Source of the DNA: an uncultured Bacilli bacterium | Lineage (GTDB): Bacteria > Bacillota_I > Bacilli_A > RF39 > UBA660 | Length of the DNA: 50,322 bases | Direction of reading: 5' to 3' | Assembly: GCA_947626425.1 (NCBI GenBank) | Contig: CANQRX010000002.1 | Location: 1-50,322, forward strand | Shown: positions 10,779-48,002 of the stretch, piece after piece | How the letters are laid out: each line of letters opens with the position of its first letter | Position numbering within the stretch: position 1 is the stretch's first letter | Made by a program: the position numbers and the translations under genes | Notes under the pieces: model-generated | What the model saw: only the letters and a program-made list of their open reading frames with translations | Database searches by the model: none | Told to the model about the DNA's origin: nothing

Positions 10779-10812
10779 ATATGGTATTATTATAATAGAG
10801 AGGATTGATGTA

Positions 10813-11451: not shown

Positions 11452-12284
11452 AAATCACTTGGTTTTAAAAAATCGGTATAAATTCCTTTAATTCCTTGCT
11501 TTAGATATTGTTTAGCTAAAGATAAATCATTTTCAGTATGAACATAAATATTGATATGATGCTCTTTAGCTATTTTTAAAATTTCTTCATTGGCAAGAGT
11601 TGTCCACATCGTAATATTGGTAATATTTTTTTCTTCGCACCAATCACATATTTTAGTAAATTCTTCATTGCCACCATTCCAACGCATATACATTGTAAAA
11701 ATATAAGTGGCATTAGGAATAATTTTGTTGATTGTTTCATACATTTCTTCATTATAAATCTGAATAATAAATCTCTTTAAAAGAGAAGGTTTATTTTTAA
11801 TTAAAAAGTACATATAAGAAAATTGTTTAGAAACGGATTCGTAATCAGAATATTTACTATCCGTAACAATATAAACATCTGGGTATTTTTCCATTAGGTT
11901 TAATAAATCGACAAAGGTTAAAGGAGTATATTTACCTAAAATTAAATTATTTAAAAAATCGTCTTTACTAGTAGAATTTTCACCTCCTAAATCATGGGCT
12001 AATACTAGTTCCTGATCACTAGTGAATTGAAAATCAACTTCAAAAGTTCTGATGCCTTCTTTATAACCATTTAAAAAAGCTTCTAAAGAATTAGTATAAC
12101 TAATATTATCAATTCCATAAAAAGCATGACCAATCAAAAAATCGTTTTGCCAAGAATATTGTTCTTCAAAAACTTTTTCGGTTTTATCATTAATACTAAA
12201 ACTTTCTTTATAAAAAAAGATTGCTCCAAATATTAGAAAAATCACTATAATAAGAAATATTTTTTTTATCATGTTATTCACCAT
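11448..12284 (-). CDS. Membrane-anchored glycerophosphodiester phosphodiesterase (GDPD) family protein
   Basis: N-terminal TM helix. GHAFYG..NSLEAF...EVDFQFTSDQELVLAHD matches the GDPD catalytic N-terminal pattern. Confidence 0.6.
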   Translation of the reverse strand: MVNNMIKKIFLIIVIFLIFGAIFFYKESFSINDKTEKVFEEQYSWQNDFLIGHAFYGIDNISYTNSLEAFLNGYKEGIRTFEVDFQFTSDQELVLAHDLGGENSTSKDDFLNNLILGKYTPLTFVDLLNLMEKYPDVYIVTDSKYSDYESVSKQFSYMYFLIKNKPSLLKRFIIQIYNEEMYETINKIIPNATYIFTMYMRWNGGNEEFTKICDWCEEKNITNITMWTTLANEEILKIAKEHHINIYVHTENDLSLAKQYLKQGIKGIYTDFLKPSDF

Positions 12285-12490: not shown

Positions 12491-13105
12491 ATGAAAACAA
12501 AACATAAAATTTTATTGGTATTACTTTCATTATCATTGATAGCTAGTTTATATGTAGTTCAATCTTATGCTTTATGGTCTTACACCGCCCCTCAAACTAC
12601 AACAAACAGTGTTAGTTCTGGATGCTTTAATATACAATATAGTGAAACAAGTGGTTCAAATTTAAGTTTAACAAAGTCTTATCCTATAAGCGACGCAGAT
12701 GCTATAAAAAAAGAAACTAATCCGTATACTTTTACAATAACGAATAAGTGTACAATAAATACTGCTTATACAGTTACTTTGAATGTTATGAAAGGGAGTA
12801 ATTTAAGTACGTCATTTATTAAATATGCGTTAGTTTCAGGTACTACGACTCCAACTGGAAAATTTCTTAGTAAAGCTCCAACTAATACAGATACTACTAA
12901 TTATGAAAATAGTGCTAATATTCTAAATTCATATAAAGTTGCAACTGGTGTACTAGCCAATAACGGCGCCCATACATTTAAGTTGTATTTATGGATTGAT
13001 GAAAGTGCAACTACGGCAATTGCAGGACAAAAATTTGAAGCCGCTGTTTATGTCAACAATGTTCCAACTACAAGTGCTGCATCTGGTCCAATTATGAGCC
13101 AGTAA
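12491..13105 (+). CDS. Secreted/anchored protein, paralog 1 of 3, with TasA/SipW-like signal end (QSYALW)
   Basis: AAGGGA RBS. N-terminus MKTKHKILLVLLSLSLIASLYVVQSYALWSY, then SGCF, SYPISD, PYTFTITNKC, FKLYLWIDESA and AAVYVNNVPT. It is homologous to 13334-13951, 14091-14768 and residues 1-195 of the 39851-41695 product. Confidence 0.75.
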   Translation: MKTKHKILLVLLSLSLIASLYVVQSYALWSYTAPQTTTNSVSSGCFNIQYSETSGSNLSLTKSYPISDADAIKKETNPYTFTITNKCTINTAYTVTLNVMKGSNLSTSFIKYALVSGTTTPTGKFLSKAPTNTDTTNYENSANILNSYKVATGVLANNGAHTFKLYLWIDESATTAIAGQKFEAAVYVNNVPTTSAASGPIMSQ

Positions 13106-13296: not shown

Positions 13297-13333
13297 GATG
13301 ATAATAGAGAGAAAATAGTAAGGGATGGGTTTC

Positions 13334-13951
13334 ATGAAAACAAAATATAAAATTTTATTGGTATTACTTTCATTATCATTAATAGCCAGCTTATATATAG
13401 CCCAGTCTTATGCTTTATGGTCTTATACTGCCCCTCAAACTTCTACCAATAGTGTCAATTCGGGCTGCTTTAATATTACTTATACAGATACAGGGAGTTC
13501 CTCATTAAATTTATTACATAGTTTTCCAATAAGTGATACGGACGCATTAAGAATAGAGAGTCCATATACTTTTACAATTACAAATAGTTGCTCAATTAAT
13601 ACGGAATATACTGTTACTTTAAATGTAATAAATACTAGTACTTTAGATGCTGCAAATATTAAGTATGCTTTGGTTCCAAATAATGATAGTAATCCTACCG
13701 CTGGGAAATTTCTTAGTAGTGCTCCAATTAATAGTGATACTAATAATTATGACGCCAAAAGTACTATTAAAACTTCCTATAAATTAGCTAGTGGTGTGTT
13801 AGCACAAAATGGAACTGCAAAATTTAAGTTATATCTGTGGATAAAAGAGGAAGCAACAGATTCCATAAAAGGGCAAACATTTACATCGGCAGTTTATGTC
13901 AACAATGTTCCAACTAATAAAGGTGTAACTGGACCAACTATGAGTCAATAA
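13334..13951 (+). CDS. Secreted/anchored protein, paralog 2 of 3 (QSYALW signal end)
   Basis: Start chosen at MKTKYKILL by analogy with the other copies and by RBS position. Same conserved blocks as paralog 1. Confidence 0.75.
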   Translation: MKTKYKILLVLLSLSLIASLYIAQSYALWSYTAPQTSTNSVNSGCFNITYTDTGSSSLNLLHSFPISDTDALRIESPYTFTITNSCSINTEYTVTLNVINTSTLDAANIKYALVPNNDSNPTAGKFLSSAPINSDTNNYDAKSTIKTSYKLASGVLAQNGTAKFKLYLWIKEEATDSIKGQTFTSAVYVNNVPTNKGVTGPTMSQ

Positions 13952-14090: not shown

Positions 14091-14768
14091 ATGAAAACAA
14101 AATATAAAATTTTATTAGGAATAATTTCTCTCGCGTTATTAGCTAGTTTATATATAGCTCAGTCTTATGCTTTATGGACTTTCACGGCCCCTCAAACTAC
14201 TACAAACAGTGTCAGTTCTGGTTGCTTTGATATAGAATACAGTGAAACAGCCAGTTCAACTTTGAATTTAACTCAGTCTTATCCTATAGATGACGCTCAA
14301 GCCTTAAGTAAAGAAACCCCATATACTTTTACAATTAAAAATAATTGTTCTATTAGTACTGAATATACTGTGACTTTAAATACATTAACTTCAAATACAT
14401 TAGATGATGCCAAAATTAAATATGCAATTGTGTCTGGAAGTAGCACTACTACAACTGGTAAAAAGTTATCTGAAGCCACGGCAAATGCTGATACTACAAA
14501 TTTTAATTTAGGTAGTACTTTAAAAAAATCTTATAAATTGGCTACAGGTGTATTAACGCAAAGTGGCTCTGTAACATTTAAGTTGTATTTATGGATCGAT
14601 GCTAGTGCCGGAAATGAAGTAATGAGTCAAAAATTTAATGCTGCTGTTTATGTTAACAATGTTCCAACTAATAAATCAGCAGCAAGTCCGACTATAAGTT
14701 CACCTAGTGTTGATGAAGGACCATCCTTTGAAGATGAAGTTCCTACTGATGAAAATGCTATTGAATAA
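14091..14768 (+). CDS. Secreted/anchored protein, paralog 3 of 3 (QSYALW signal end) with acidic C-terminal tail
   Basis: Same conserved blocks as paralogs 1 and 2, plus an extra SPSVDEGPSFEDEVPTDENAIE tail. Confidence 0.75.
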   Translation: MKTKYKILLGIISLALLASLYIAQSYALWTFTAPQTTTNSVSSGCFDIEYSETASSTLNLTQSYPIDDAQALSKETPYTFTIKNNCSISTEYTVTLNTLTSNTLDDAKIKYAIVSGSSTTTTGKKLSEATANADTTNFNLGSTLKKSYKLATGVLTQSGSVTFKLYLWIDASAGNEVMSQKFNAAVYVNNVPTNKSAASPTISSPSVDEGPSFEDEVPTDENAIE

Positions 14769-14885: not shown

Positions 14886-16520
14886 ATGAAATCAGTGTCA
14901 ATAGGAAACGATGATTTTAGTGATTTAATAAAAAGTAATAGTTATTATGTCGATAAAACTAATGCTATTGAAGAATTATTAAAAAATAATAAAAAAGTAG
15001 TCTTATATACAAGACCGCGAAGATTTGGTAAAAGTTTGTTTATATCAATGTTAGAACATTTTTTTGACATTGATGAATCTTGTAGTAACAAAGATTTATT
15101 TAAAGGATTATATATATCCAAAAGTCCATATTTTAGTGAGTTTGGTAGTTTCCCAGTTATTAGTTTAACTTTTAAAAATTTAAAACAAAATACTTATGAA
15201 AGTGTTTATGCTCAGTTTGTTGCTATAATAAAACAAATATATGTTGATAAAAATTATGTTTTTGAGGTTTTAGATGATTCCGAAAAAGATTTATTCAACG
15301 GAATCAAAAATGGAACAGTTACGATTGAAGAATATAAATTATCAATATTTCTTTTATCAAGATGGTTAGAAAGGTATCATCAAAGGAAAGTTGTAATTTT
15401 AATTGATGAATACGATGTTCCAATTCAATGTGGTTATTTAAAAGGCTTTTACGATGAAGTAATAGATTTAATCAGCAGTGTTTTTTCGGCTTGTTTAAAA
15501 ACCAATAATTCTTTAAAAATGGGAATATTAACTGGTGTTTTACGAGTAAGTAAAGAATCAATTTTCAGTGATTTAAATAATTTAAAAGTATATGATATGA
15601 TGAGCTTTCATTATCTTGAATCATTTGGGTTTACGGAATCAGAAACAAAAGAATTATTAGAATATTATGGTTTAGAATTAACAAGTGATGTTAAAAATTT
15701 TTATGATGGATATAGTATGAATGGAGTAAGTATATATAATCCTTGGAGTATTCTAAATTATGCTGATGAAAAAATTTTAAATTCGTATTGGATAAATACT
15801 TCGGGAAATGATTTAATAATAAAATTATTAAGTGAAACAAGTAAAGAAGTTAAAATCGACATTGAAAAATTAGCAACTGGAGAAAGTATTTCATTTACCT
15901 ATAATGATAAATTAACCTATTTAGATTTGGATAAAAAACAAAGTAAAAATAATATTTTAAACTTAATGTATGCTTCAGGTTATTTAACAATCGATCAAGT
16001 TATTGATGAAGCATTTCGAAAGTACAGCGTAAAGATACCTAATGAAGAAGTAAAAATATTTATATTAAAAATTATTAGTTATGCTTATGCAAATGATGTA
16101 ATAGATGAATACGTTAGTAATTTTGGGGAGGCTTTAAAAAATGATAATAAAGAAGAAATGGAAAAAAGTTTAAATAAAATGTTAGAAAGTATGTCATATA
16201 TGGTAACTTGCGACAACTTTTATCATGGATATATGTTAGGAATTTTTCAAGGCTTTTTAAGAGGACAATATATTGTCAAATCAAACCGAGAAGGAGGATT
16301 AGGAAGATTTGATGTATTAATTGAGAAAAAAGATCGAAATTTTGGCTGTATTTTTGAATTTAAAATAGCTGAGAAAGAAAGTGAAATGGAAAATTTAGCA
16401 AGCCTTGCTAAAAAGCAAATGAAAGAAAAAGAATATTACAAAGAATTACAATTAGACAAAGTTGAAAATATAAAAGAATATGCTTTAGTATTTTATGAAA
16501 AGAAATGTGTTGTTAGGTAA
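14886..16520 (+). CDS. Predicted AAA-ATPase (PF09820-like) with C-terminal PD-(D/E)XK nuclease domain (PDDEXK_9-like), copy 1
   Basis: N-terminus IGNDDFSDLIKSNSYYVDKT..YTRPRRFGKSLFISMLEHFF is the signature of the predicted AAA-ATPase family. C-terminus GGLGRFDVLIE..IFEFK fits a PD-(D/E)XK core. Confidence 0.8.
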   Translation: MKSVSIGNDDFSDLIKSNSYYVDKTNAIEELLKNNKKVVLYTRPRRFGKSLFISMLEHFFDIDESCSNKDLFKGLYISKSPYFSEFGSFPVISLTFKNLKQNTYESVYAQFVAIIKQIYVDKNYVFEVLDDSEKDLFNGIKNGTVTIEEYKLSIFLLSRWLERYHQRKVVILIDEYDVPIQCGYLKGFYDEVIDLISSVFSACLKTNNSLKMGILTGVLRVSKESIFSDLNNLKVYDMMSFHYLESFGFTESETKELLEYYGLELTSDVKNFYDGYSMNGVSIYNPWSILNYADEKILNSYWINTSGNDLIIKLLSETSKEVKIDIEKLATGESISFTYNDKLTYLDLDKKQSKNNILNLMYASGYLTIDQVIDEAFRKYSVKIPNEEVKIFILKIISYAYANDVIDEYVSNFGEALKNDNKEEMEKSLNKMLESMSYMVTCDNFYHGYMLGIFQGFLRGQYIVKSNREGGLGRFDVLIEKKDRNFGCIFEFKIAEKESEMENLASLAKKQMKEKEYYKELQLDKVENIKEYALVFYEKKCVVR

Positions 16521-16535
16521 AGGAGGGATAATATC

Positions 16536-18170
16536 ATGAAATCAGTGTCAATAGGAAACGATGATTTTAGTGATTTAATAAAAAGTAATAGTTATTATGT
16601 CGATAAAACTAATGCTATTGAAGAATTATTAAAAAATAATAAAAAAGTAGTCTTATATACAAGACCGCGAAGATTTGGTAAAAGTTTGTTTATATCAATG
16701 TTAGAACATTTTTTTGACATTGATGAATCTTGTAGTAACAAAGATTTATTTAAAGGATTATATATATCCAAAAGTCCATATTTTAGTGAGTTTGGAAGTT
16801 TCCCAGTTATTAGTTTAACTTTTAAAAATTTAAAACAAAATACTTATGATGAAGTATATGAACAGTTTGTGATGCTTATAGAAAAACTATATACAGAAAA
16901 AAGTTATGTTTTAGAAGTATTAGATGAAGATGAAAAAAATAAATTCAAAAGAATAAAAAGTGGTCAAGCAAAATATAGTGAATATCAAGATTCGTTATTT
17001 CAATTATCAATATGGTTAGAAAGGTATCATCAAAAGAAAGTTGTAATTTTAATTGATGAATATGATGCTCCTATTCAAAGTGGTTATTTGAATGGCTTTT
17101 ATGATAAGGTAATAAATTTAATTAGAAGTGTTTTTTCAGCTTGTTTAAAAACCAATAAATCTTTAAAGATGGGAGTATTAACCGGAGTTTTACGAGTAAG
17201 TAAAGAATCAATTTTCAGTGATTTAAATAATTTAAAGGTATATGATATGATGAGCCTTCATTATCTTGAATCATTTGGTTTTACGGAAAAGGAAACTAAA
17301 GAATTATTAGAATATTATGGTTTAGAATTAACAAGTGATGTTAAAAATTTTTATGATGGATATAGTATGAATGGAGTAAGTATATATAATCCTTGGAGTA
17401 TTCTAAATTATGCTGATGAAAAAATTTTAAATTCGTATTGGATAAATACTTCGGGAAATGATTTAATAATAAAATTATTAAGTGAAACAAGTAAAGAAGT
17501 TAAAATCGACATTGAAAAATTAGCAACTGGAGAAAGTATTTCATTTACCTATAATGATAAATTAACCTATTTAGATTTGGATAAAAAACAAAGTAAAAAT
17601 AATATTTTAAACTTAATGTATGCTTCAGGTTATTTAACAATCGATCAAGTTATTGATGAAGCATTTCGAAAGTACAGCGTAAAGATACCTAATGAAGAAG
17701 TAAAAATATTTATATTAAAAATTATTAGTTATGCTTATGCAAATGATGTAATAGATGAATACGTTAGTAATTTTGGGGAGGCTTTAAAAAATGATAATAA
17801 AGAAGAAATGGAAAAAAGTTTAAATAAAATGTTAGAAAGTATGTCATATATGGTAACTTGCGACAACTTTTATCATGGATATATGTTAGGAATTTTTCAA
17901 GGCTTTTTAAGAGGACAATATATTGTCAAATCAAACCGAGAAGGAGGATTAGGAAGATTTGATGTATTAATTGAGAAAAAAGATCGAAATTTTGGCTGTA
18001 TTTTTGAATTTAAAATAGCTGAGAAAGAAAGTGAAATGGAAAATTTAGCAAGCCTTGCTAAAAAGCAAATGAAAGAAAAAGAATATTACAAAGAATTACA
18101 ATTAGACAAAGTTGAAAATATAAAAGAATATGCTTTAGTATTTTATGAAAAGAAATGTGTTGTTAGGTAA
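16536..18170 (+). CDS. Predicted AAA-ATPase with C-terminal PD-(D/E)XK domain, copy 2
   Basis: Same length (544 aa) and motifs as copy 1. Residues 1-104 and about 256-544 are identical to copy 1. Confidence 0.8.
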   Translation: MKSVSIGNDDFSDLIKSNSYYVDKTNAIEELLKNNKKVVLYTRPRRFGKSLFISMLEHFFDIDESCSNKDLFKGLYISKSPYFSEFGSFPVISLTFKNLKQNTYDEVYEQFVMLIEKLYTEKSYVLEVLDEDEKNKFKRIKSGQAKYSEYQDSLFQLSIWLERYHQKKVVILIDEYDAPIQSGYLNGFYDKVINLIRSVFSACLKTNKSLKMGVLTGVLRVSKESIFSDLNNLKVYDMMSLHYLESFGFTEKETKELLEYYGLELTSDVKNFYDGYSMNGVSIYNPWSILNYADEKILNSYWINTSGNDLIIKLLSETSKEVKIDIEKLATGESISFTYNDKLTYLDLDKKQSKNNILNLMYASGYLTIDQVIDEAFRKYSVKIPNEEVKIFILKIISYAYANDVIDEYVSNFGEALKNDNKEEMEKSLNKMLESMSYMVTCDNFYHGYMLGIFQGFLRGQYIVKSNREGGLGRFDVLIEKKDRNFGCIFEFKIAEKESEMENLASLAKKQMKEKEYYKELQLDKVENIKEYALVFYEKKCVVR

Positions 18171-21280: not shown

Positions 21281-22661
21281 ATGAAAATAGAAAATTATAA
21301 GTTAAAAACAAGTAAAAAAGCAAAAATATTGATTGGAAGTATGGTAGGAATAATGGCTCTAGGGGGGGGGGTATCTACTAAATAAAAGTTTAGGAAAATA
21401 CCAAGTCGAACAAAGTTTTCCCATAATGAATGGGAAAATTCAAGCAAACAGTGGTGATGTTTCAATCATTGCTATTAAAGTTGATGGAGCTGTAGTAGAT
21501 GAAATTCCAGCTAAAGGTTCAGGAAAATATTTTGAAAGTGCGGAATGTTCAAATGGAGCTACGGGATCATGGGATCGAACGAATTGGCAATTTTTATTAA
21601 ATACAACCAAAAAAACCAAATGTACATTAAATTTTACAACAACAAAAAGTACAACTGGTGAACAAAGTGGTGCAAGTAAAATGGAAGATTTATTATCTCA
21701 AGAAGAAGATAAAGGATCAGGAATAACTATTGTCAGTGATGATAATAACATTAGATATATTGGTCAAAATCCTAGTAACTATATTTATTTTAATTGTAAA
21801 GATAGTACAACTCAAAACGCCGAAAATTGTGAAACATGGCGAATAATAGGATTAATGGATGGAATAAAAACCAAAGCCGGAAAAACGGAAAGATTGTTAA
21901 AAATCATAAGAGAAAAATTACCTGTTTCTTTAAGTTGGGACTCATCTGCTTCTAGTGTAAATCAAGGCTATGGAGTAAATGAATGGAGTCAAGCAGATTT
22001 AATGACTGTCTTAAATGGCGATTATTTTAAAGGCCAAAAAGGAACTGATAAATGTTATAGTAGTTCTGGCGTATCAACAACAGACTGTCCAGATTGGATC
22101 CAGTATGGTTTAAAAAAATCAGCCCAAGATATGATCGAAGAAGTGGTTTGGAATACGGGAACGGCCGCAGTAACAGAAAACACTTGGGAAAAAGGAAATA
22201 TGCCAGTAGTTCAATATATATGGGAACGAAGTGATTTTACAGGAAAGCAATGTAATGGTGGAAGTTATTGTAACGACGATGTTCAAAGACAAACCACATG
22301 GGAAGGCAAAGTAGGTTTGATGTATCCATCGGACTATGGTTATGCCACCGATGGTGGGAAAGACCAAGTGAAAAGAATGCAATGTTTATATACACCATTA
22401 TATGATTGGAATGATAACAGTAATTGTTATAGTAATGATTGGCTATATGATAGTCAAAATTATCAATGGACAATGACTCCTGCGCCGTATTCTTCGTATG
22501 CTAGCGCTGTGTTCATTGTCCACGCAATCGGGCGTGTCTACTACCGCAATGCCTACAATGCTAACGCGGCTCGCCCCGTCGTTTATTTAAAGTCTTCGGT
22601 AAAAATTACTGGGGGGACAGGCTCTGATTCTGATCCATTTCAATTAAAATTAGAAGAATAA
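21281..22661 (+). CDS. Phase-variable surface protein with C-terminal lectin-like domain; currently frameshifted (OFF) at a G10 tract
   Basis: ATG 21281 encodes MKIENYKLKTSKKAKILIGSMVGIMALGGG, then stops at 21383-21385. With G9, the frame continues YLLNKSLGKYQVEQSFPIMNGKIQ.. into ORF 21426-22661. The C-terminal domain (WRIIGL, YPSDYGYAT, RPVVYLKS) is shared with 39851-41695 and 46537-47938. Confidence 0.7.
21362..21371 (+). repeat. Homopolymeric G10 tract inside signal-anchor codons
   Basis: Counted directly as 10 consecutive G in a roughly 30% GC genome. It encodes the GGG at the end of the TM helix. Confidence 0.9.
22478..22583 (+). other. DGR variable-region-like segment (GC-rich, A-poor) at the 3' end of 21281-22661
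   Basis: About 56% G+C by hand count. AAY/TAY codons are interspersed with A-free codons (..cgc aat gcc tac aat gct aac gcg gct cgc ccc gtc gtt). Confidence 0.45.
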
Positions 22662-35598: not shown

Positions 35599-36042
35599 AT
35601 GAAAGAATCTTATTGGGGTTATTGGATAATTGTACTAGGTGTATTTATCATCGTCATAATGATGTTAATATCTAATGTGACAACGACTAATACTCAAGAC
35701 TATTATTTAATAAAAGAAGTATCAGAAGCTTCGATGGTAGATGCAATAGATTATGCGTATTATCGTCAAAGTGGTGAATTAAGAATTAATCGTGAAAAAT
35801 TTGTAGAAAGCTTTTTAAGACGCTTTGCTGAAAATGTTTCACTTAGTACATATACTGTAAATTTTTACGATATATATGAAGCACCACCTAAAGCAAGTGT
35901 TGAAGTTATAACCAAAAGCAATACTTATAATATAAATTCTGATGCCCAAAGTTTTGATATTGTTAATAGAATAGATGCAATATTAGAACTAGATGGTACT
36001 GCAGAATCAGGAACGTTTGATAACTTACAATCAAATCCTTAA
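35599..36042 (+). CDS. Small N-terminally membrane-anchored protein (possible pseudopilin-like or assembly factor)
   Basis: AGGAGG RBS 10 nt after the giant gene stop. MKESYWGYWIIVLGVFIIVIMMLIS hydrophobic N-terminus, then a soluble domain of about 115 aa. It sits directly upstream of the Tad-like core. Confidence 0.55.
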   Translation: MKESYWGYWIIVLGVFIIVIMMLISNVTTTNTQDYYLIKEVSEASMVDAIDYAYYRQSGELRINREKFVESFLRRFAENVSLSTYTVNFYDIYEAPPKASVEVITKSNTYNINSDAQSFDIVNRIDAILELDGTAESGTFDNLQSNP

Positions 36043-36080
36043 AAAATTGCTTTAAAAAATATTAGTTAGGAGGAATAAAA

Positions 36081-36914
36081 ATGGGAAATTTATTATCAAA
36101 ACTTAAAAGGTTTTTAGAAAATAAAAATACAGTAACAATTTTATGTGTAATCGCGGGAATTGCAGTTTTGTATATTGGTTATAATTGGCGGGTTAATTCA
36201 GCTATTAGTCCGACATCTATTCCTTATGCAAAAACTGCTTTACCTTCACGTCATGTTATAACATCAGATGATATTGGTTATATGGAAGTTTCTAGTGCGG
36301 TCGTTAATCGTAGTTCTAATATTATTAGAAATTCCAATTTAATTATTGGTAAAGAGGTAATGTATGGTACTACCATTCCTCAAAATAGTTTTTTCTATGA
36401 TAGTGCAATTACCGATTCTAATTTACAACCAGATGATGTTATGGCTGATATTCCAAACGGCTATACATTGTTTACTTTATCAGTAGACTTACATACTACT
36501 TATGGTAACTCTATTTATCCTGGAAATTATATTGATTTATGGTTTAAGGGTGTAGATGATTACAACAAAATAATGTATACCAACTTAATAAGAAGTATTA
36601 AAGTTTCCGATGTTCGGGATAGTAATGGTCAATCTGTTTTTGAAACATCTATGGAAAAAAGAACACCATCTGAATTATTATTTGCAGTTCCTGATGATAT
36701 GTATTCTTTGCTTAAAAAAGCTCAATACATTGGTGGGGTAGAAATAATACCAGTTCCAAGAAACCGTAATTATACTGCCAATCCTGGAGAAACAGAAGTT
36801 GCTAGTGATTATGTAAAAGAATTTATTTTATCAAAAACCGCAATTATTCCAGATGAAAATATAAGTACAAACACAAATGATAATAACGATGAAAACAATA
36901 ATGTAGAAGAATAA
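36081..36914 (+). CDS. CpaB/RcpC-like Flp pilus assembly protein (SAF-domain protein)
   Basis: AGGAGG RBS and an N-terminal TM helix. This is followed by a SAF-like segment (IPYAKTALPSRHVITSDDIGYMEV...IIGKEVMYGTTIPQNSFF). It lies immediately upstream of a CpaF/TadA-type ATPase. Confidence 0.5.
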   Translation: MGNLLSKLKRFLENKNTVTILCVIAGIAVLYIGYNWRVNSAISPTSIPYAKTALPSRHVITSDDIGYMEVSSAVVNRSSNIIRNSNLIIGKEVMYGTTIPQNSFFYDSAITDSNLQPDDVMADIPNGYTLFTLSVDLHTTYGNSIYPGNYIDLWFKGVDDYNKIMYTNLIRSIKVSDVRDSNGQSVFETSMEKRTPSELLFAVPDDMYSLLKKAQYIGGVEIIPVPRNRNYTANPGETEVASDYVKEFILSKTAIIPDENISTNTNDNNDENNNVEE

Positions 36915-36933
36915 CAAGAAAGGGGTGCCGGCC

Positions 36934-38061
36934 ATGAATGATGCTATATTTTCGCAATTAGACTTTGGGCCAATCGAAGAATTTTTAAGAAATGAAGATG
37001 TAACAGATATTTCTTATAGTAATAATGGCTGTGTTTGGTTAAAATCACTTTCTCAAGGTTGCTATAAAGTTGAACGACCTGAAATAAATAATGCACTTAT
37101 GGAAAAATTAGCATTTCAGTGTGCAAATGTTATGGGTAAAACATTTAACATGGCCCATCCTTTCTTAGATGCAGAAAGTGCCGAATTACGTTTAAATTTT
37201 GTTCATGATTCCATTGCTACAAATGGAATTGCTTGCGTTATCCGTAAAACACCAGCCAAAATCCGATTAAATAAAACTAAATTATTAGATGAAAAATACG
37301 TTTCCGAAAGTGTTCATGATTTTTTGATTAAATGTGTAGAAGGTCATGCCAATATAATTGTCAGTGGAGAAACTGGTTCCGGAAAAACCGAATTAGTTAA
37401 ATACTTAGCTTCACATACCAAAGAAAACGAAAAAGTTATTACCATTGAAGATACATTGGAGTTACATTTAGACCGAATTTTTCCTCATCGGGATATTGTG
37501 GCAATGAAAACTAATAATATTGCGAGTTATTCAGATGTTTTAGTAACATGTATGCGTCAAAATCCCATTTGGATATTACTTTCCGAAGTTCGTAGTGCTG
37601 AAGCGGTTATGGCCGTCCGTAACTCGATTTCTTCAGGGCACCACATTTTATCAACAATTCACTCCGATAAAGCAAGTTTAATTCCGATGCGTATGTATTC
37701 TTTAGTTGAATCAAACATTGATGTCGAACAGTTTGTCGCGACAATTCACCGATACGTCCAAATAGGAGTCTATGTAAAAGGTTATTTAAGTAAAGAACTG
37801 GGTAGATTTCAAAGAGAAATATTGGAAGTTTGTGAATTTTATGTTGATGATAATAATAAGCCAAAAACAAATATTATATTTAAAAAAACTTTAACAGGTG
37901 AGATTACTATGAATAATCCTACCGAACATTTAAGAGATTATTTAGGTATTTCAGGGGTTCTTTTACCAGATGACATTTTTGCATCAGAAAAAGATAATTC
38001 TGATTCTAGTCAAATGGCTAATAATACTTCATCTGATATTGAGCAGATAGAAACTTTATAA
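36934..38061 (+). CDS. CpaF/TadA-type secretion ATPase (VirB11/GspE superfamily)
   Basis: Walker A VSGETGSGKTE, ITIEDTLEL, Walker B-like IWILLSEVRSAEA, and His-box-like HHILSTIHS. Size of about 375 aa is typical of TadA/CpaF. Confidence 0.8.
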   Translation: MNDAIFSQLDFGPIEEFLRNEDVTDISYSNNGCVWLKSLSQGCYKVERPEINNALMEKLAFQCANVMGKTFNMAHPFLDAESAELRLNFVHDSIATNGIACVIRKTPAKIRLNKTKLLDEKYVSESVHDFLIKCVEGHANIIVSGETGSGKTELVKYLASHTKENEKVITIEDTLELHLDRIFPHRDIVAMKTNNIASYSDVLVTCMRQNPIWILLSEVRSAEAVMAVRNSISSGHHILSTIHSDKASLIPMRMYSLVESNIDVEQFVATIHRYVQIGVYVKGYLSKELGRFQREILEVCEFYVDDNNKPKTNIIFKKTLTGEITMNNPTEHLRDYLGISGVLLPDDIFASEKDNSDSSQMANNTSSDIEQIETL

Positions 38062-38077
38062 GAAGGAGAGAGGACCA

Positions 38078-38974
38078 ATGATTGAGCTTATAATTTTAAT
38101 AGCCTTAGCAGTTTTTGCTTTATCATACCGATTTAATAATGGAGAAAATATTTACAAATTTTTTGTTACCAAAATTTCAATGGCTTATGATCGATATGCT
38201 CCATATAGTTTTAAAACGGTTCGGGAAAAAACCAAAGAATTAGGAAAAGAGTACACTGCTAAAGATTATTTAACCCAAGTAGCGCTCTTTGTTGCCGTTG
38301 CTGGAGGAATATCTTATCTATATTTTTACAATATTATTATTTCTGCTATTTATGCAGGTGTAGCGGTTTTGTTTATCCCGTTTTTAGCTTATTTAAGGTG
38401 TCAAAAAGCTTATTCAGAATTTTTATTCGAGCAAACCCAGGTTTATACAACCAATGTTATAATGGAATTTAATACCACTCAAAGTTTTGTAAAATCTTTA
38501 GAAGGCGTTCGGGATTCTGGAATCTTAGAAAATCCTCTTTTGGATGATGTTAAAACAATGATTGATATGTCTTACCAAAATGGAACAATTGATGAATCAA
38601 TAGAATTCTTTAATAAAAAGTATCCTTACTATATGGTAAAAAATATGCACCAATTATTTTTACAAATAACAAAAGAAGGTGCAAAAGACTCTGGTGAAGC
38701 CTTAGAAAATATGTCCATGGATATCGATGCCTTAGTTGAAGGTGTTTATCGAGACCAAATCGACAGAGCAAACTTTCACAAACGATTTATAACTTTTGGA
38801 TTAGCCTTATTTCTATTAGTAATGGCCATGCAATTTCTACTCGGAACAGAATCTTATTTAAAATTATTAGATATGTGGTATGTACAAGTAGTCCTTCACT
38901 TAATAATCTGGATTAACTGTTTCTTTCTATACCGCGGCGAACGTTTCTATTATGAAGATGTGGGGGTAGAATAA
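38078..38974 (+). CDS. TadB-like platform protein (T2SS-F-type membrane protein)
   Basis: 298 aa. An N-terminal TM helix, a helical cytoplasmic domain, then C-terminal TM helices. Position is directly after the ATPase. The call rests on topology and context. Confidence 0.5.
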   Translation: MIELIILIALAVFALSYRFNNGENIYKFFVTKISMAYDRYAPYSFKTVREKTKELGKEYTAKDYLTQVALFVAVAGGISYLYFYNIIISAIYAGVAVLFIPFLAYLRCQKAYSEFLFEQTQVYTTNVIMEFNTTQSFVKSLEGVRDSGILENPLLDDVKTMIDMSYQNGTIDESIEFFNKKYPYYMVKNMHQLFLQITKEGAKDSGEALENMSMDIDALVEGVYRDQIDRANFHKRFITFGLALFLLVMAMQFLLGTESYLKLLDMWYVQVVLHLIIWINCFFLYRGERFYYEDVGVE

Positions 38975-39762
38975 TGTACTGGGAAATAATTACCTTAGCA
39001 ATTATAATATTGTTTGTTTTAAATTATACCGGAAGGATTTCTGCTTCTCGTTTCGTTAGCGATAATGAAGTAATCTTTCAAAAATTAAAAGAAAAAGATT
39101 GGGATTTTTATGTAAAGATTAGATATGGAGATACGGTAAACCCAGACTTCTTATTTACCAAAAGAGTTCAAAACGGGTTAATAATAATTGTCATCATGCT
39201 TTGCTTCTTTATTTCTAATTTATCTTATGTAACCATTTTGTTTAGTTTAATTGCCGGCTATTTAGTATTTAAAATGCAATATAATAATTTAAAGAATTAT
39301 TATAAAAGACATTTACATGAAATAGACGCCATGTTACCACATTATTTAAAAAGTTTGGAAATTTTAATTCAACATTACACCGTTCCAGTAGCTTTAGGAA
39401 AATCAATTGAAGATGCCCCAGCTATATTTAAAGACGGTTTACAAGAATTAATTAGTCAAATCAACAGTGGGGATAGTTCAATTAATCCTTATATGCAATT
39501 CGCCAAAGTTTATCCAGTTCGTGATTCAATGCGAATGATGCGTTTATTATATCGTTTATCATTAGGACGACAAGAACATAAACAAGAACAATTAATTACT
39601 TTCTCAAGAACCATTTCTAATTTACAACAAAAAGCAAGAGAAATAAAATACAAAGAACGTCTTGACAAAATGGAAAAGAAAACCATGCAAATGCTAGTTG
39701 TAACCGGTGTTGGGGTAATGATATTACTAGTTTTAGCGGTTTTAATGATGATGAATATGTAA
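38974..39762 (+). CDS. TadC-like platform protein (T2SS-F-type membrane protein)
   Basis: 262 aa. Start overlaps the previous stop (TAATG). Same TM - cytoplasmic domain - TM topology as the preceding gene. Confidence 0.5.
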   Translation: MYWEIITLAIIILFVLNYTGRISASRFVSDNEVIFQKLKEKDWDFYVKIRYGDTVNPDFLFTKRVQNGLIIIVIMLCFFISNLSYVTILFSLIAGYLVFKMQYNNLKNYYKRHLHEIDAMLPHYLKSLEILIQHYTVPVALGKSIEDAPAIFKDGLQELISQINSGDSSINPYMQFAKVYPVRDSMRMMRLLYRLSLGRQEHKQEQLITFSRTISNLQQKAREIKYKERLDKMEKKTMQMLVVTGVGVMILLVLAVLMMMNM

Positions 39763-39794: not shown

Positions 39795-39826
39795 TTGACA
39801 AACGGGGGGGGGGTATATGATAAAAT
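39795..39826 (+). promoter_or_regulatory. Putative promoter whose -35/-10 spacer contains a G10 tract
   Basis: TTGACA (39795-39800), then AAC plus G10. Candidate -10 elements are TATGAT (39816-39821, spacer 15) or extended TG-A-TAAAAT (39818-39826, spacer 20). Confidence 0.5.
39804..39813 (+). repeat. Homopolymeric G10 tract (intergenic)
   Basis: Counted directly. The in-frame stop at 39827-39829 shows it is not part of the 39851 ORF. Confidence 0.9.
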
Positions 39827-39850: not shown

Positions 39851-41695
39851 ATGGAAAAGAAAACAAATACTTTTAATTATTTTATTGTTGTATTAATTAT
39901 TTTAGTTATTGCTTTTTTAGGAATAACGTATGCTTATTGGAATGTAACAATTAATCAAGAAAATAAAAATGTAGTAAAATCAGTTTGTTTAAAAGTAAGT
40001 ATGGCTAAAGATGAAAATGAAATAAGTCTACCTAAAGCTATGCCCATCAGTGACGAAGAAGGTGTAGCTTTAGCACCATATACCTTTAGCATTAAAAATA
40101 CTTGTAATGATAATGCAAGTTACCAAATAAATTTAGAGTCTTTATCCAAAATAAATGGAACAGAAGAAATACCTTTTAATGATAGATTAGCACCCAAATA
40201 TGTTCGCTTTAAATTAAATAAAACCGAAAAACCAGATGAAGGAACAATGTTATTATTAAGTAATACGGATGAAGTAACCCCAATTTTAGATAATACCTAT
40301 AGTTCCCATAAATTAATGACCGGATATTTAAGTCCAAGTGAAACCAAAGATTTTGAATTAAGATTATGGATAGATGAAGATGCTGATGAAGGAGCGATGA
40401 ATAAAACATTTGCCAGTAAAGTAACCATAACCAATGCTTATTTAGAGGAAGATAAAATACCACCAACAGCCACTTTAGATTTAGCGGTTTGTGATAATCT
40501 AATTACAGCTACCGGAAGTGGTCAAGCAAATAAAGACAAAACAATTTCTAAATATGAATATAAATTAGATGATGATGATTGGTATGAAACAACAAGTACT
40601 GAACCAAAAACATTTACAGTTGAAGATTATGGCTTACATAAAATAAGTTTAAGAGTAACGGATAATACCAATAATGTAAGTGGTGAAGTAATAAAAGAAG
40701 TTGAAATAAAAAAACCAGAAACTGTAAATATTAAAGGTAAAGATATTCCAGTAGCAACCTGTGGAGATGGATTATATCGAGTGGAACATAAAGATGGCCC
40801 TGATAACTGGAAAGAAACAGAATATCGTTTTGCCGGAGTAAACTATACTAATGATAGCACTTCATATGTCCATAATTATGTAAGCTTTAATGAAGAAATT
40901 TGGCGAATTATAGGATTAGTAAATGTTAAAACAGAAGATGGAAAATATGACCAACGATTAAAAATTGTCCGAACTGATGGAGTAGGTAACCAAAAGAATT
41001 TTGGCAGTTATCAATGGAATAATACAGCTAATAGTGACTGGACGAAATCATCATTAAAAAATATGTTAAACGGAATTTACTATACTAGTGAAAATGGAGA
41101 TTGTTATACAACAAGTAGTACAGCAACCCAATGTGATTTTAGTCAAGAAAGTACTACTTTACCAAATGGTTTAAATGAAACAGCCCGAGGAATGGTCGAT
41201 GATGGAGTAATCTGGAATTTAGGAGGAACAGCAGCATATCAAACTACAACAGTAACCCAATTTTATAATTATGAACGAGGAACGACAGTGTATAATGATA
41301 GACCAAAGGAATGGACAAAAACCAATGATGCAAGTGAACATAAAGGAGTAGGCTTAATTTATCCAAGTGATTATGGGTATGCCACGAATGGTGGAACCTC
41401 GGGAAGAGATTATTGTTTTAAAAAAGCACTATACAGTTGGGCCGGAAGTGGTTATAAAGAAGAATGTGCCAATAAAGATTGGTTAAAGCCAAGTAGTAGC
41501 TATTTATGGACGATTACGCCGAATTCGGGCAGTTCCCACGCTGCGTTCAGTGTCCACTCGTCGGGGTTTGTCATCGGCAACTACAGCGTCGCGAACTCCT
41601 ACGTCGTCTGGCCCGTCGTGTATCTGAAATCGAATATTCAGATTTCCGGCGGTGATGGGACTTTTGAAAATCCCTTTACTCTTGAATTAGATTAA
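39851..41695 (+). CDS. Fusion surface protein: TasA-like-signal N-terminal domain + Ig-like linker + lectin-like C-terminal domain with DGR-VR-like end
   Basis: N-terminus ..IILVIAFLGITYAYWNV. Residues 1-195 align with the 12.5-14.8 kb paralogs (PISD, PYTFSIKNTC, FELRLWIDEDA). Residues about 200-614 align with 46537-47938, with long identical DNA stretches. Confidence 0.8.
   Translation: MEKKTNTFNYFIVVLIILVIAFLGITYAYWNVTINQENKNVVKSVCLKVSMAKDENEISLPKAMPISDEEGVALAPYTFSIKNTCNDNASYQINLESLSKINGTEEIPFNDRLAPKYVRFKLNKTEKPDEGTMLLLSNTDEVTPILDNTYSSHKLMTGYLSPSETKDFELRLWIDEDADEGAMNKTFASKVTITNAYLEEDKIPPTATLDLAVCDNLITATGSGQANKDKTISKYEYKLDDDDWYETTSTEPKTFTVEDYGLHKISLRVTDNTNNVSGEVIKEVEIKKPETVNIKGKDIPVATCGDGLYRVEHKDGPDNWKETEYRFAGVNYTNDSTSYVHNYVSFNEEIWRIIGLVNVKTEDGKYDQRLKIVRTDGVGNQKNFGSYQWNNTANSDWTKSSLKNMLNGIYYTSENGDCYTTSSTATQCDFSQESTTLPNGLNETARGMVDDGVIWNLGGTAAYQTTTVTQFYNYERGTTVYNDRPKEWTKTNDASEHKGVGLIYPSDYGYATNGGTSGRDYCFKKALYSWAGSGYKEECANKDWLKPSSSYLWTITPNSGSSHAAFSVHSSGFVIGNYSVANSYVVWPVVYLKSNIQISGGDGTFENPFTLELD
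41519..41620 (+). other. DGR variable-region-like segment
   Basis: About 62% G+C and 14% A by hand count. See the codon comparison with 47759-47860 in the findings. Confidence 0.55.
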
Positions 41696-44063: not shown

Positions 44064-44384
44064 TTAGTTTAAAAAAGAAATTTTAGTTATTTGTTCAAAA
44101 TAAAGGGAAGTATGATCATCAAAATATATTTGTTTGTTTTGAAAATTAAAGTGATCAATAATTCCTAATTTTCGATAAAACTGATTTTTCCAAAAATAAA
44201 TTATTTGGATTTTTTCTTTCGTGTGATAAGCTTTTTGAATATTTTGTTCAAGATTTTCTTTGTCATCTTCACTTAAAATCGATAATTTTTGTTGATTTCT
44301 TTTTTCTTTTAATTCCTGTAATACTTCGCTTGCAGGTACTACGGCATTAAAGGGTTGCCACTTAACTTCGCCACGATTACTCAT
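44064..44384 (-). CDS. YolD-like protein
   Basis: AAAGGTGG RBS. MSNRGEVKWQPFNAV.. and its size and position downstream of a UmuC-like polymerase match the Bacillus yolD/yqzH arrangement. Confidence 0.7.
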   Translation of the reverse strand: MSNRGEVKWQPFNAVVPASEVLQELKEKRNQQKLSILSEDDKENLEQNIQKAYHTKEKIQIIYFWKNQFYRKLGIIDHFNFQNKQIYFDDHTSLYFEQITKISFLN

Positions 44385-45639
44385 AATGACCACCTTTCTT
44401 TTTATTACGTTCTTTAATCGTTGAATTGCTTAAAAGACTTGTTGCTTTTAAAACACTATTTTTGCCAAACTGTTGATGAATTTGATCTAAAACCAAATCT
44501 AAATCATTTTGTTTTTCTTGCTTTTCTAAAGGATTAAATAAATCTAATTGAATACCTTGATACTTCGATAATTTTCCTAAAGCAATACTAACTTTTCTTA
44601 TTGGTGTATTTTCTTCATAATAACGATCAAAAATAATTTTGCAAACTTGAAATAAACTTTCCGTCGAGCGAGTAGGTAAATCTAATTTTGTGGAATGATA
44701 AAAACCTCCTCCGATATTTAAGGAATAACTAATTCCTAAATAAATTAAATTAGTTTCTAAATTTTTACTTCGAAGCCTTTTCGTTAACACCTCTAACATT
44801 TCTTCAATTATTAAAAATATTTCTTCATTGTAATAATCCTTAAAAAGGACTTGACTATGACTAATTGATTTTTCTTTTGGAGCATGGTTAAAATCGCTAA
44901 TTAAAGAGTTATCTATCCCATTCGCATGTTCCCATAATTCCTGACCAATAACACCAAACTTATTTTTTAAAAGCTCAGGGTTATAGTTTGCTAAATCCCC
45001 AACCGTTATTATTCCTAAATTATTAAGCCGTTTTTCCATTCGTGATCCAATTCCCCACATTTTGGAAAGGGGAGTGATTGGCCAAAGTTTAGAAGGCACA
45101 TCATTATAAGTCCATTTAGCTATGCCATTTTTATATTTTTTCGCTTCGACATCCATAGCTATTTTAGCTAAAAGTAAATTAGGTCCAATTCCACAAGTCG
45201 CAGTTAAACCTGTTTTTGCTTCAATCGTTTGTAAAATTTTTAATGCTAGCTGTTCATCCGTTAATTGGTAATAATCTAAATAAGTTGTAACATCTAAAAA
45301 ACATTCATCAATCGAATAAATATGTAAGTCATTTTCGCTAACAAAGTCTAAATAAATGTTAATAACTTCTTTACTTTTTTGGGTATATAAACCCATTCGT
45401 GGCGGAACAATTTGATATTTTATTTCTTTGGGAATATTATAAAGCCTAGTCCGAGAAGGAATATTTTGAGCTTTTAAAAAAGGCGTTATCGCTAAAGTAA
45501 TGGCACCCTTACCTTGTTTATCATTCGCAACGACTAAGGCAGTTGTAAAAGGATTTATTCCTCGTTCGACACATTCACAAGAAGCAAAAAAACTTTTTAA
45601 ATCAATACATAAAATATGGCGATTACTTTTTTGGTCCAT
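44377..45639 (-). CDS. Y-family DNA polymerase (UmuC/DinB-like, UvrX/YqjW type)
   Basis: GGAGGTG RBS before MDQKSNRHILCIDLKSFFASCE (catalytic D-x-K-x-F-F-A), SIDECFLDVT, and an HhH region. Confidence 0.85.
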   Translation of the reverse strand: MDQKSNRHILCIDLKSFFASCECVERGINPFTTALVVANDKQGKGAITLAITPFLKAQNIPSRTRLYNIPKEIKYQIVPPRMGLYTQKSKEVINIYLDFVSENDLHIYSIDECFLDVTTYLDYYQLTDEQLALKILQTIEAKTGLTATCGIGPNLLLAKIAMDVEAKKYKNGIAKWTYNDVPSKLWPITPLSKMWGIGSRMEKRLNNLGIITVGDLANYNPELLKNKFGVIGQELWEHANGIDNSLISDFNHAPKEKSISHSQVLFKDYYNEEIFLIIEEMLEVLTKRLRSKNLETNLIYLGISYSLNIGGGFYHSTKLDLPTRSTESLFQVCKIIFDRYYEENTPIRKVSIALGKLSKYQGIQLDLFNPLEKQEKQNDLDLVLDQIHQQFGKNSVLKATSLLSNSTIKERNKKKGGHYE

Positions 45640-45744
45640 TAAAAACACCTCCCAAACTTTTGTTCAATAACATTATAACAAAATTAGAAGGAAATACAAT
45701 TGACAAAAATTAACAATTTTGGGAAGATAAAACAGGTGAAGAAA

Positions 45745-46465: not shown

Positions 46466-46494
46466 TTGAAAAAAAGAAGTTATTAACTTATAAT
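46466..46494 (+). promoter_or_regulatory. Sigma-A-type promoter TTGAAA-N17-TATAAT
   Basis: Read directly. Part of the 5' cassette shared with 21220-21430. Confidence 0.6.
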
Positions 46495-46536: not shown

Positions 46537-47938
46537 ATGAAAATTGATAATTATAAGTTAAAAAACAGAAAAAAAGCAAAAATTTTAATAGGAAGTATGG
46601 CCGGAATAATAGCCCTAGGGGGGGGGGTATATATTAAGTAGAAGTTATGGAAAATACCAAGTAGAACAAAGCTTTCCCATAATGGAAGGCCAAATAAAAA
46701 TTAGAAAAATAACAGTAGATTTAAGTTTAGAACCTTGTGATGATACAATTTTAGCTACAACAGAAGTAACCCCAGCAGATAATATTAAAAAGTATGAATA
46801 TCAAATTGACAGTGAAAGTTGGAAAGAAGGTTCTGCTACACAGAATTTTATTGTACCGTCGAGAGGGCATCATACAGTAAAAGTTAAAGTAACTGCGGGA
46901 TCAAAAACAGCTGAAACAAGTAAAGAGATAGATATGCCAGCCTCAGTAACCGTAGATATCTCTGGAAAAGCAATTCCACTTGTATCATGTGATCCAAATG
47001 GATTATATAAAGTCGAACATAACGAAGCGGATGTTGATGAAGGATTTAGCCATGAAGAATATCGTTATGCGGGAGTAAATTATACTGATGCAGATACACC
47101 ATATGTTCATAATTATGTAAAATTTAATGAAGAAAAATGGCGAATCATCGGATTAGTGAATGTAAAAACTGGAGAAGGCGCCTATGACCAACGATTAAAA
47201 ATCGTGCGAACTAGTGGAGTAGGTAACCAAAATAATTTTGGAAGTTATTATTGGAATAATAAAAGTAAAAATGATTGGACAAGTTCATCATTAAAAAATA
47301 TGTTAAACGGAATTTACTATAATAGTGGAAGTGGAAGTTGTTATACAACAAGTATTACAGCAACCCAATGTGATTTTAATTCTGAAAGTGGAACTTTACC
47401 AAAAGGATTAAGTCAAGAAGCTCGAGAAATGGTAGATGGAGAAGTAACATGGAATTTAGGAGGAACAAATGCTAATACTACTTCTACTTCTACAGTAACC
47501 CAATTTTATAATTATGAGCGAGGAACGACAGTGTATAGTAATCGACCAACGGAATGGACAAAAACCAATGATGCAAGTGAACATAAAGGAGTAGGCTTAA
47601 TTTATCCGAGTGATTATGGGTATGCCACGAATGGTGGAACCTCGGGAAGAGATTATTGCTTTTCAGAAGCATTATTTAAATGGGATACAGGAGATTATAA
47701 AACAAACTGTTCAAGTAATGATTGGTTAAAATCAAGTGGTTTAGTGTGGACGATTACGCCGGATTCGGGCAAATCCGGCAATGCGTTCTATGTCAACTCG
47801 TCGGGGTCTGTCGACGGCCGCTTCAGCGTCATTTACTCCCGAGTCGTCTGGCCCGTCGTATATCTGAAATCGAATGTTAAAATTATTGATGGAGATGGCA
47901 CTTTTCAAAATCCGTACATCTTATCTGTTCAAAATTAA
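46537..47938 (+). CDS. Phase-variable surface protein with Ig-like and lectin-like domains; currently frameshifted (OFF) at a G10 tract
   Basis: ATG 46537 encodes MKIDNYKLKNRKKAKILIGSMAGIIALGGG, then stops at 46639-46641. With G9, the frame continues YILSRSYGKYQVEQSFPIMEGQIK.. into ORF 46682-47938. Confidence 0.7.
46618..46627 (+). repeat. Homopolymeric G10 tract inside signal-anchor codons
   Basis: Counted directly. Confidence 0.9.
47759..47860 (+). other. DGR variable-region-like segment
   Basis: Same frame and length as 41519-41620. All 20 invariant codons are shared, and differences are confined to 14 codons. Confidence 0.55.
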
Positions 47939-47945
47939 AAGTTAG

Positions 47946-48002
47946 TCGAAGAGGTGTACTATCTAGTGTGTAAATATTATACACTAGATAGTACACCTTC
48001 GA
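47946..48002. other. Long perfect-stem hairpin/palindrome 8 nt after the stop codon
   Basis: GGTGTACTATCTAGTGT (47953-47969) pairs perfectly with ACACTAGATAGTACACC (47981-47997). Extra pairs on both sides extend the stem. No T-run follows. Confidence 0.7.

Follow-up and report, generated by a model that had tools for sequence, protein, structure and literature searches.

The stretch of DNA under study, hereafter the window, comprises 50,322 nt of contig CANQRX010000002.1 (assembly GCA_947626425.1, an uncultured Bacilli bacterium) and contains three paralogous genes for predicted surface proteins, two of which end in segments that are very probably variable regions (VRs) of a diversity-generating retroelement (DGR). 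Target gene 1 (39851-41695, plus strand) is an open reading frame (ORF) for a 614-aa protein with a predicted membrane anchor, a beta-sandwich module, a PKD/immunoglobulin (Ig)-like domain and a C-terminal DUF6273-like domain, within which lies the first of these segments, VR1. Target gene 2 (46537-47938, plus strand) consists of a 27-aa leader starting at an ATG at 46537, a tract of ten guanines (G10) at 46618-46627 and a body ORF at 46682-47938 (418 aa), and target gene 3 (21281-22661, plus strand) is built likewise, with a leader from the ATG at 21281, a G10 tract at 21362-21371 and a body ORF at 21426-22661 (411 aa). The product of target gene 1 and that of the 418-aa ORF have a C-terminal region of ~410 aa in common (60% identity); the target gene 3 product shares its last ~270 aa with them at 35% identity. 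An earlier note on this DNA, made from its letters, had drawn attention to VR1 and to its counterpart in target gene 2 and did not mention the third family copy (ORF 21426-22661).

VR1 (41519-41620, plus strand) is 102 nt long, has 61.8% GC and 13.7% A and encodes residues 557-590 of the 614-aa protein. Its paralogous counterpart, VR2 (47759-47860, plus strand; 59.8% GC, 14.7% A), lies 6240 nt downstream and carries the same scaffold with 24 differing positions, all 78 of the 78 other positions being identical. Among the 34 codons, 20 are identical, one differs synonymously and 13 differ non-synonymously, and the differences distribute over codon positions 1, 2 and 3 as 10, 10 and 4, which places 20 of the 24 at the first two. 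The scaffold avoids adenine (the 60 nt made up by the identical codons contain a single A), and the flanks are identical over 12 nt upstream and 15 nt downstream. Upon recomputation, the coordinates and counts given in the earlier note (102 nt at ~62% GC and ~14% A, 24 differences, 20 of 34 identical codons, identical flanks) all agreed with ours. Codons that specify the same amino acid in both VRs are nearly always identical at the nucleotide level as well (20 of 21, the exception being the last codon, GTG/GTA), as against just 84% of the amino-acid-identical codons in the flanking domain. Because scaffold and flanks are identical and codon identity exceeds this 84% background, the sequences suggest that both VRs were overwritten from the same template repeat (TR) after the paralogs had diverged.

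These segments stand out from their surroundings by composition. The window as a whole has 28.9% GC, and a sliding scan of its 50 kb found at least 50% GC over 102 nt only at 22460-22532, 41465-41576 and 47717-47802. The first of these intervals corresponds to a VR3-like region in target gene 3 (22485-22583, plus strand; GC 0.57, A 0.16). Its scaffold is unlike that of VR1 and VR2 and a different TR would therefore be needed, which implies that a second TR exists or that the templating took place earlier. Since every adenine of a TR is mutable, a scaffold has to avoid A, and the GC islands thus likely result from A-free scaffold codons in a genome of 27-29% GC, an explanation that draws on the established DGR mechanism. 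A composition ~5 standard deviations above the window mean in all three VR regions might also be expected of a GC-rich foreign or artefactual insert, acquired by horizontal transfer or created by an assembly chimera. Yet VR1 is in frame within a conserved domain, recurs at this position in three paralogs as well as in dozens of independently assembled homologs, and forms part of the fold in a high-confidence structural model. Family-wide conservation effectively refutes an insert, whose probability we consider negligible.

The family to which these genes belong is large. More than 1200 homologs of the 614-aa protein were found, nearly all without a Pfam assignment, and their C-termini follow the scaffold WT(I/L)(T/S)P.S..S..(A/V)F.V.S.G.V...VWP.VYL, while the positions in between are scrambled in practically all members. 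When one genome per species was scanned, 78 loci (L001-L078) came up, all from rabbit-gut metagenome-assembled genomes (MAGs) labelled 'uncultured Bacilli bacterium', and a single MAG holds at least 21 VR-type C-termini. One of these loci, L018, contains a canonical DGR. Its target gene (9983-11890) has a VR at 11726-11815 and is followed by a TR at 12058-12147 (332 nt downstream), a 123-aa ORF, a bAvd gene and a gene for a 357-aa reverse transcriptase (RT). The bAvd matches PF22296 above the cut-off. The RT matches RVT_1 at 5e-17, carries the motif GNLTSQ...YVRYMDD and finds its best match among solved structures in 8ub7_A (8e-24), a 328-aa RT that we take to be bRT, with group II intron RTs following at ~1e-6. 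From about the 17th aligned base onward, VR and TR of L018 mismatch only at TR adenines. In the same MAG, VRs on four contigs (L018, L019, L033 and L056) each differ from this one TR at 14-20 adenine sites, while only 2-4 of ~67 non-adenine sites differ. Remote targets are thus normal in this lineage, as observed in this related MAG. The 65 VR-type C-termini of the family fall into two composition classes, one GC-rich and A-poor (GC 0.50-0.62, A 0.07-0.19) and one AT-rich (GC 0.26-0.40, A 0.25-0.43), and the former holds every TR-matched VR as well as all three window copies.

The verified TR of L018 served as a proxy for the template of the window. VR1 and VR2 were aligned with it, and 23 of their 24 differences could be placed. 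Of these, 19 fall on TR adenines, as do only 9 of the 76 identical positions (table 19 / 4 / 9 / 67; Fisher p = 3.6e-10, odds ratio 35); the same test against a TR-like copy at locus L032 gave p = 5e-8. The adenines of a homologous template thus predict which positions vary between VR1 and VR2. Together with the homology to the L018 cassette, this supports the earlier note in reading the segments as DGR variable regions. Its supporting count, that one copy carries A at 19 of the 24 differences, was right as well and is telling only against local A composition (expected fraction 0.33 from 14% A; p = 5.5e-6). Taken by itself, the A-involvement count does not discriminate for or against a DGR.

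Could such a pattern arise by hypervariability of another kind, namely diversifying selection or gene conversion among paralogs acting on lectin-like loops, with a GC-rich scaffold dictated by structure or codon usage? A paralogous expansion to at least 21 copies in one MAG is the kind of family that often recombines, and with paralogs ~80% identical, the identity of scaffold codons exceeds the background by only a modest amount. However, such processes would have to account for differences that coincide with the adenines of a verified homologous TR and for an A avoidance without obvious reason at the protein level. Besides, the GC-rich, A-poor state co-occurs in the family with VRs that match a verified TR, and gene conversion would homogenise the copies rather than leave 24 differences confined to AAY-type codons. 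We therefore regard hypervariability without a DGR as very improbable.

If VR1 and VR2 derive from one template, a TR with A at each of their differences would read CCGAATTCGGGCAAATCCAACAATGCGTTCAATGTCAACTCGTCGGGGTATGTCAACGGCAACTACAGCGTCAAAAACTCCAAAGTCGTCTGGCCCGTCGTA. Neither this template nor the genes that would act on it lie nearby. A sensitive blastn of the window with both VRs found no third copy of their scaffold, a motif scan of the window ORFs found no DGR-type RT, and tblastn of the window with the L018 RT and Avd returned nothing, which bears out the earlier note in this respect. The ORFs between VR1 and VR2, considered as RT or Avd candidates, instead encode a class B sortase, a YolD protein, a Y-family polymerase and a DNA-alkylation-repair protein. 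Beyond the window, collections of genomes, viruses and metagenome contigs were scanned for the exact scaffold with N at each variable site, which gave 0 matches, the VRs of the window itself included. A broader gapped pattern, based on the edges in common with L079, likewise gave 0 matches in viral and metagenome contigs. L079 is a homolog of 79% identity from an assembly in ENA, and has the same VR edges (TGGACGATTACGCCG ... GTCTGGCCCGTCGTGTATCTGAAA) around other variable codons, with two extra codons. Another ENA record, that of homolog P0002, is a contig of 2.2 kb that offers no flank. The ~1 Mb of target-centred related loci contains only one RT; a window with two to three targets but neither RT nor TR is thus what one would expect.

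The L032 copy mentioned above is an adenine-rich, TR-like sequence (L032:12829-12924) directly downstream of a target gene and followed by mraZ, rsmH and ftsL. With the L018 TR, which belongs to another MAG, it shares 90% identity, and the similarity includes 12 nt past the end of the repeat (CTGTAGCCCCTT). No RT or Avd was found near it, and it makes a poor template for the VRs of the MAG from which it comes, with 7-12 non-adenine mismatches.

At the other end of the argument are the borders of the VR. The A-free 17-mer at the 3' terminus of VR1, GTCGTCTGGCCCGTCGT (41603-41619, plus strand), has two exact copies in the window, where none would be expected by chance. In L018, VR/TR homology stops at an A-free 18-mer directly before the TAT CTG codons, and the 17-mer occupies the equivalent position. 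We regard it from these alignments as the putative 3' anchor of the VR and as the positional equivalent of an initiation of mutagenic homing (IMH) site. The suggestion of the earlier note that this element is an IMH is thus plausible as far as position goes; a distinction between IMH and IMH* or a conserved hairpin, on the other hand, could not be demonstrated at any of the VR 3' edges compared. A hairpin follows VR1 and the L079 VR (z = -1.8) and is absent after VR2 and the L018 VR. As a candidate target-recognition element of the DGR it was rejected, being neither conserved across VRs nor statistically distinctive.

As to the protein that is being varied, a Pfam scan of the 614-aa sequence gave nothing at E<=0.01 and, at E<=0.1, a sub-threshold PKD match; a profile search of PDB sequences found no match. 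Structure prediction was more informative. An AlphaFold2 model of residues 290-614 reached a predicted local distance difference test (pLDDT) of 96.5 and a predicted template-modelling (TM) score of 0.94, and VR1 (model residues 268-301) appears in it as several short, consecutive beta-strands close to the C-terminus. Foldseek matched this model at probability 1.0 to the DUF6273 N-terminal domain of 9qa6, a Thomasclavelia ramosa IgA peptidase (E = 2e-6), and to at least eight DUF6273 phage proteins (E 1e-6 to 1e-3) with TM-scores of ~0.33-0.42; matches to DUF1566 and to the Legionella Lcl domain were weaker. The modelled C-terminal domain and DUF6273 thus have a common core, with large differences. 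The assignment of the 9qa6 domain to DUF6273 is published (PMC12402451), and DUF6273 is documented as a DGR target domain (PMC10743442, PMC11792537, PMC12402451), described as C-type-lectin-like and, in gut phages, as subject to hypermutation by DGRs, its C-terminal hairpin being the site of the VR (PMC10743442, PMC11792537). The earlier note had proposed a C-type-lectin-type domain. This is supported indirectly, by the match of the model to DUF6273, C-lectin-like according to the same two studies; Mtd and TvpA were not matched directly. In the model, the VR is placed at the C-terminus of a lectin-like domain (CLec, DUF6273 or DUF1566 type), the likeness to C-type lectins being that described in PMC10743442.

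At the sequence level, the kinship is faint throughout the family. The L018 target matches PF19789, the Pfam model of DUF6273, at E = 0.0079 and 16.5 bits, below the cut-off of 23.5; among 25 family members, there was one match (E = 0.018), and a few distant members have precomputed PF19789 matches. A tblastn search of 50,697 phage genomes found no match. The family is thus cellular and only remotely related to DUF6273. As for the N-terminal 290 residues, they were modelled at a pLDDT of 83 as a transmembrane helix followed by two Ig-like beta-sandwiches. A role of this module as a pilin was considered and dismissed, as the model matched only generic Ig/FN3 tandems. Elsewhere in the window, three tandem small ORFs (12491-13105, 13325-13951 and 14091-14768; 204-225 aa) have only this N-terminal anchor and beta-sandwich module in common with the 614-aa protein, at 26-28% identity and with an SYALW motif conserved after the hydrophobic segment. 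None of the three has a Pfam match, and they may serve as structural partners or constitute a version of the family that has just the stalk.

Taken together, we consider it highly probable that VR1 and VR2 are the variable regions of two paralogous surface proteins, rewritten by adenine-specific retrohoming from one TR outside the window. Judging by the models, the VR is the predicted C-terminal beta-hairpin region of a DUF6273-like domain, carried on an Ig-like stalk with an N-terminal membrane anchor, and because of this combination of lectin-like domain, stalk and anchor, a variable adhesin that binds a ligand is the most likely product. Mechanistically, a DGR RT and its Avd partner would copy the TR RNA into cDNA, misreading template adenines at about half of the sites. 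This cDNA would then replace the VR, so that the non-adenine scaffold is reset to the TR sequence and AAY-type codons are randomised. We infer, each in its own right, a TR and an RT in this genome, ongoing diversification and ligand binding.

Several observations weigh against this reading. No RT, Avd or TR resides within the 50-kb window, and scans of the genome, viral and metagenome collections, among which the source genome is not included, yielded neither a cognate nor a near-cognate TR. The differences at third codon positions (indices 14, 74, 83 and 101) are exactly the four exceptions that fall off TR adenines; they would need AAA-type codons in the TR or ordinary substitutions. The share of VR1/VR2 differences that involve A (79%) is not above that in the AT-rich upstream part of the paralog pair (75%), and the excess of codon identity and of non-synonymous changes over the flank is modest, since the paralogs are ~80% identical throughout. 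On the protein side, the Foldseek search of the PDB returned neither Mtd nor TvpA, and the three window proteins have no sequence match to DUF6273 (PF19789).

Part of this would also fit fossil VRs, written by an ancestral DGR whose RT and TR have since been lost or inactivated, such that the pattern is a relic. The absence of RT, Avd and TR from these 50 kb, that of a cognate TR from the collections scanned and the four third-position differences are compatible with this. Besides, ordinary AT-rich C-termini occur in many family members from related MAGs, meaning that DGR templating does get lost, and the L032 copy, with its mismatches to the VRs of its own MAG, suggests decaying components. 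However, scaffold and 12/15-nt flanks of VR1 and VR2 are perfectly identical, compared with 65-80% identity in the surrounding paralogous DNA, and show no sign of a drift towards AT in a 29% GC genome; both facts point to overwriting from a common TR later than the divergence of the paralogs. Targets remote from an RT on another contig are, moreover, normal in the related MAG. Consequently, we deem a relic unlikely, if distinctly less so than the other alternatives, and favour rewriting from a TR that lies outside the window.

A second feature of the same genes is their G tracts. Homopolymers of G or C of at least 8 nt occur only three times in the window, all of them G10 (21362-21371, 39804-39813 and 46618-46627), and every one of the three family genes has one of them at its 5' end. 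In target genes 2 and 3, the G10 follows the 27-aa leader (MKI(D/E)NYKLK...AL) and shifts the body out of frame; with G9 or G12, proteins of 459-467 aa would be restored, and the closest ortholog, P0023 (459 aa), is exactly this in-frame form. Truncated forms exist as well. A promoter-like site (TTGAAA-17-TATAAT) lies upstream of target gene 2 at 46466-46494. Upstream of target gene 1, the G10 tract (39804-39813, plus strand) is located between a -35 element TTGACA (39795-39800) and a -10-like TATGAT / TGATAAAAT, and with ten Gs, a promoter whose spacer has the canonical 16-18 nt was not found at this gene.

The related loci (L001-L078) contain 52 such tracts of G8-G12, mostly G10, all on the gene strand and 0 on the opposite one, where ~0.6 would be expected per strand. 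Forty-two of the 52 precede a family C-domain by less than 2.6 kb, and most sit just upstream of a TATAAT-type -10-like box, often with an extended-10 TG, followed by a ribosome-binding site and an ATG (e.g. L042:9582-9591, L036:1132-1141 and L007:405-413). Tract lengths differ among paralogs and orthologs. Some contigs break at a G tract (L013:1-12 and L035:1-8). The arrangement suggests that the G tracts are candidate slipped-strand phase-variation switches, with homopolymer assembly errors as another possible explanation. As for known homopolymer contingency loci, poly-G or poly-C tracts are found in Neisseria and Haemophilus, and poly-A tracts in the vlp promoters of Mycoplasma. The tracts described here resemble them in that surface-protein genes have G8-G12 of varying length in their promoter spacer or early in their coding region, and differ from them in that the genes concerned also carry DGR-type VRs and that switching is deduced from sequence.

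Combining both features, one may envisage two layers of variation on this one expanded family of membrane-anchored, lectin-like surface proteins in an AT-rich rabbit-gut Bacilli lineage, with on/off switching through poly-G tracts on the one hand and trans-acting DGRs that rewrite the binding hairpin in a subset of paralogs on the other. In such a scheme, one or few DGRs, unlinked from most of their targets, would supply the diversity and G8-G12 tracts in the promoter spacer or leader would switch individual paralogs. This is a real possibility, which we advance tentatively.

The genes surrounding the targets deserve brief mention. Directly upstream of target gene 1, a cluster at 35599-39762 encodes a DUF5411 protein, a weakly CpaB/RcpC-like protein, an ATPase of the T2SSE/TadA/VirB11 class and two unassigned membrane proteins; by matches below curated cut-offs, it may specify a Tad-like filament or secretion system. 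Between the VR-bearing genes, on the minus strand (44064-45648), lie a YolD-like gene and a gene for an error-prone Y-family (ImpB/MucB/SamB) polymerase. They are probably unrelated to the VR pattern, because that pattern is adenine-specific and matches a retroelement template. At 14886-16520 and 16536-18170, tandem 544-aa paralogs encode predicted AAA-ATPases with a PD-(D/E)XK nuclease domain (PF09820 and PF08011), unrelated to the VRs. Just past the stop codon of the 418-aa gene, inspection by eye revealed a near-perfect long inverted repeat (GGTGTACTATCTAGTGTGTA ... TACACTAGATAGTACACC; 47950-48000), which is probably a transcription terminator.

How do these genes relate to known DGRs? With the prototype, the DGR of Bordetella phage BPP-1 (Mtd, TR, Avd and bRT), they have in common a C-terminal VR in a ligand-binding domain (predicted here), an apparent adenine-specific variation at AAY-type codons and an A-free VR 3' end, and a bAvd and an RT are part of the homologous L018 cassette. 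The window targets, in contrast, are chromosomal, membrane-anchored bacterial proteins rather than a phage tail fibre, at least two of them share one scaffold without a nearby RT or TR, an IMH/IMH* pair or conserved downstream hairpin is not demonstrable here, and Mtd was not returned by the fold search. DGRs with several targets and remote VRs are known from Treponema denticola, with its TvpA paralogs, and from Legionella, where one TR serves several unlinked targets. The one TR of the L018 MAG, which matches four VRs on four contigs, conforms to this scheme, whereas the target family is another one, comprises many more paralogs and is DGR-templated only in part.

By structural class (Foldseek probability 1.0) and by the position of the VR at the C-terminal beta-hairpin region of the domain, the window proteins resemble the DUF6273 targets of DGRs in gut Firmicute phages and prophages, such as tentaclins and Faecalibacterium prophage targets (PMC10743442, PMC11792537). 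In contrast to these, they do not reach the Pfam model, had no tblastn counterpart among the 50,697 phage genomes and superpose at TM-scores of ~0.4. Their architecture, too, is different, with an N-terminal anchor, an Ig-like stalk and a large C-terminal region of 325 aa, and they are cellular and present as multiple paralogs. DGRs of Bacteroides, in turn, diversify the adhesive tips of type V pili (bioRxiv 10.1101/2024.11.15.621889). Here, the parallels lie in the gut commensal lifestyle, in surface proteins of the adhesin type as the diversified product and in the position of target gene 1 directly downstream of the cluster with the secretion ATPase and the CpaB-like protein. Phylum and surface machinery differ, and the pilus link in the window stems from weak, sub-threshold matches.

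In summary, remote, multi-copy DGR targets of a DUF6273-like class in an uncultured gut Bacilli lineage are a solid but unsurprising addition to the known DGR targets. To our knowledge, DGRs are the only known prokaryotic system for targeted protein hypermutation, and the gut has the highest known DGR density. What is new is a chromosomal, membrane-anchored target family with a divergent DUF6273-like head, a domain previously documented mainly in gut phages, and with dozens of paralogs per genome. As a diagnostic, A-depleted GC islands in very AT-rich genomes flag orphan DGR targets in the absence of a TR. If both layers of variation hold true, DGR diversification and poly-G phase variation on the same genes would amount to a combinatorial strategy of surface variation; with all three window genes in the 'off' state, silent copies would diversify and later be sampled by phase switching.

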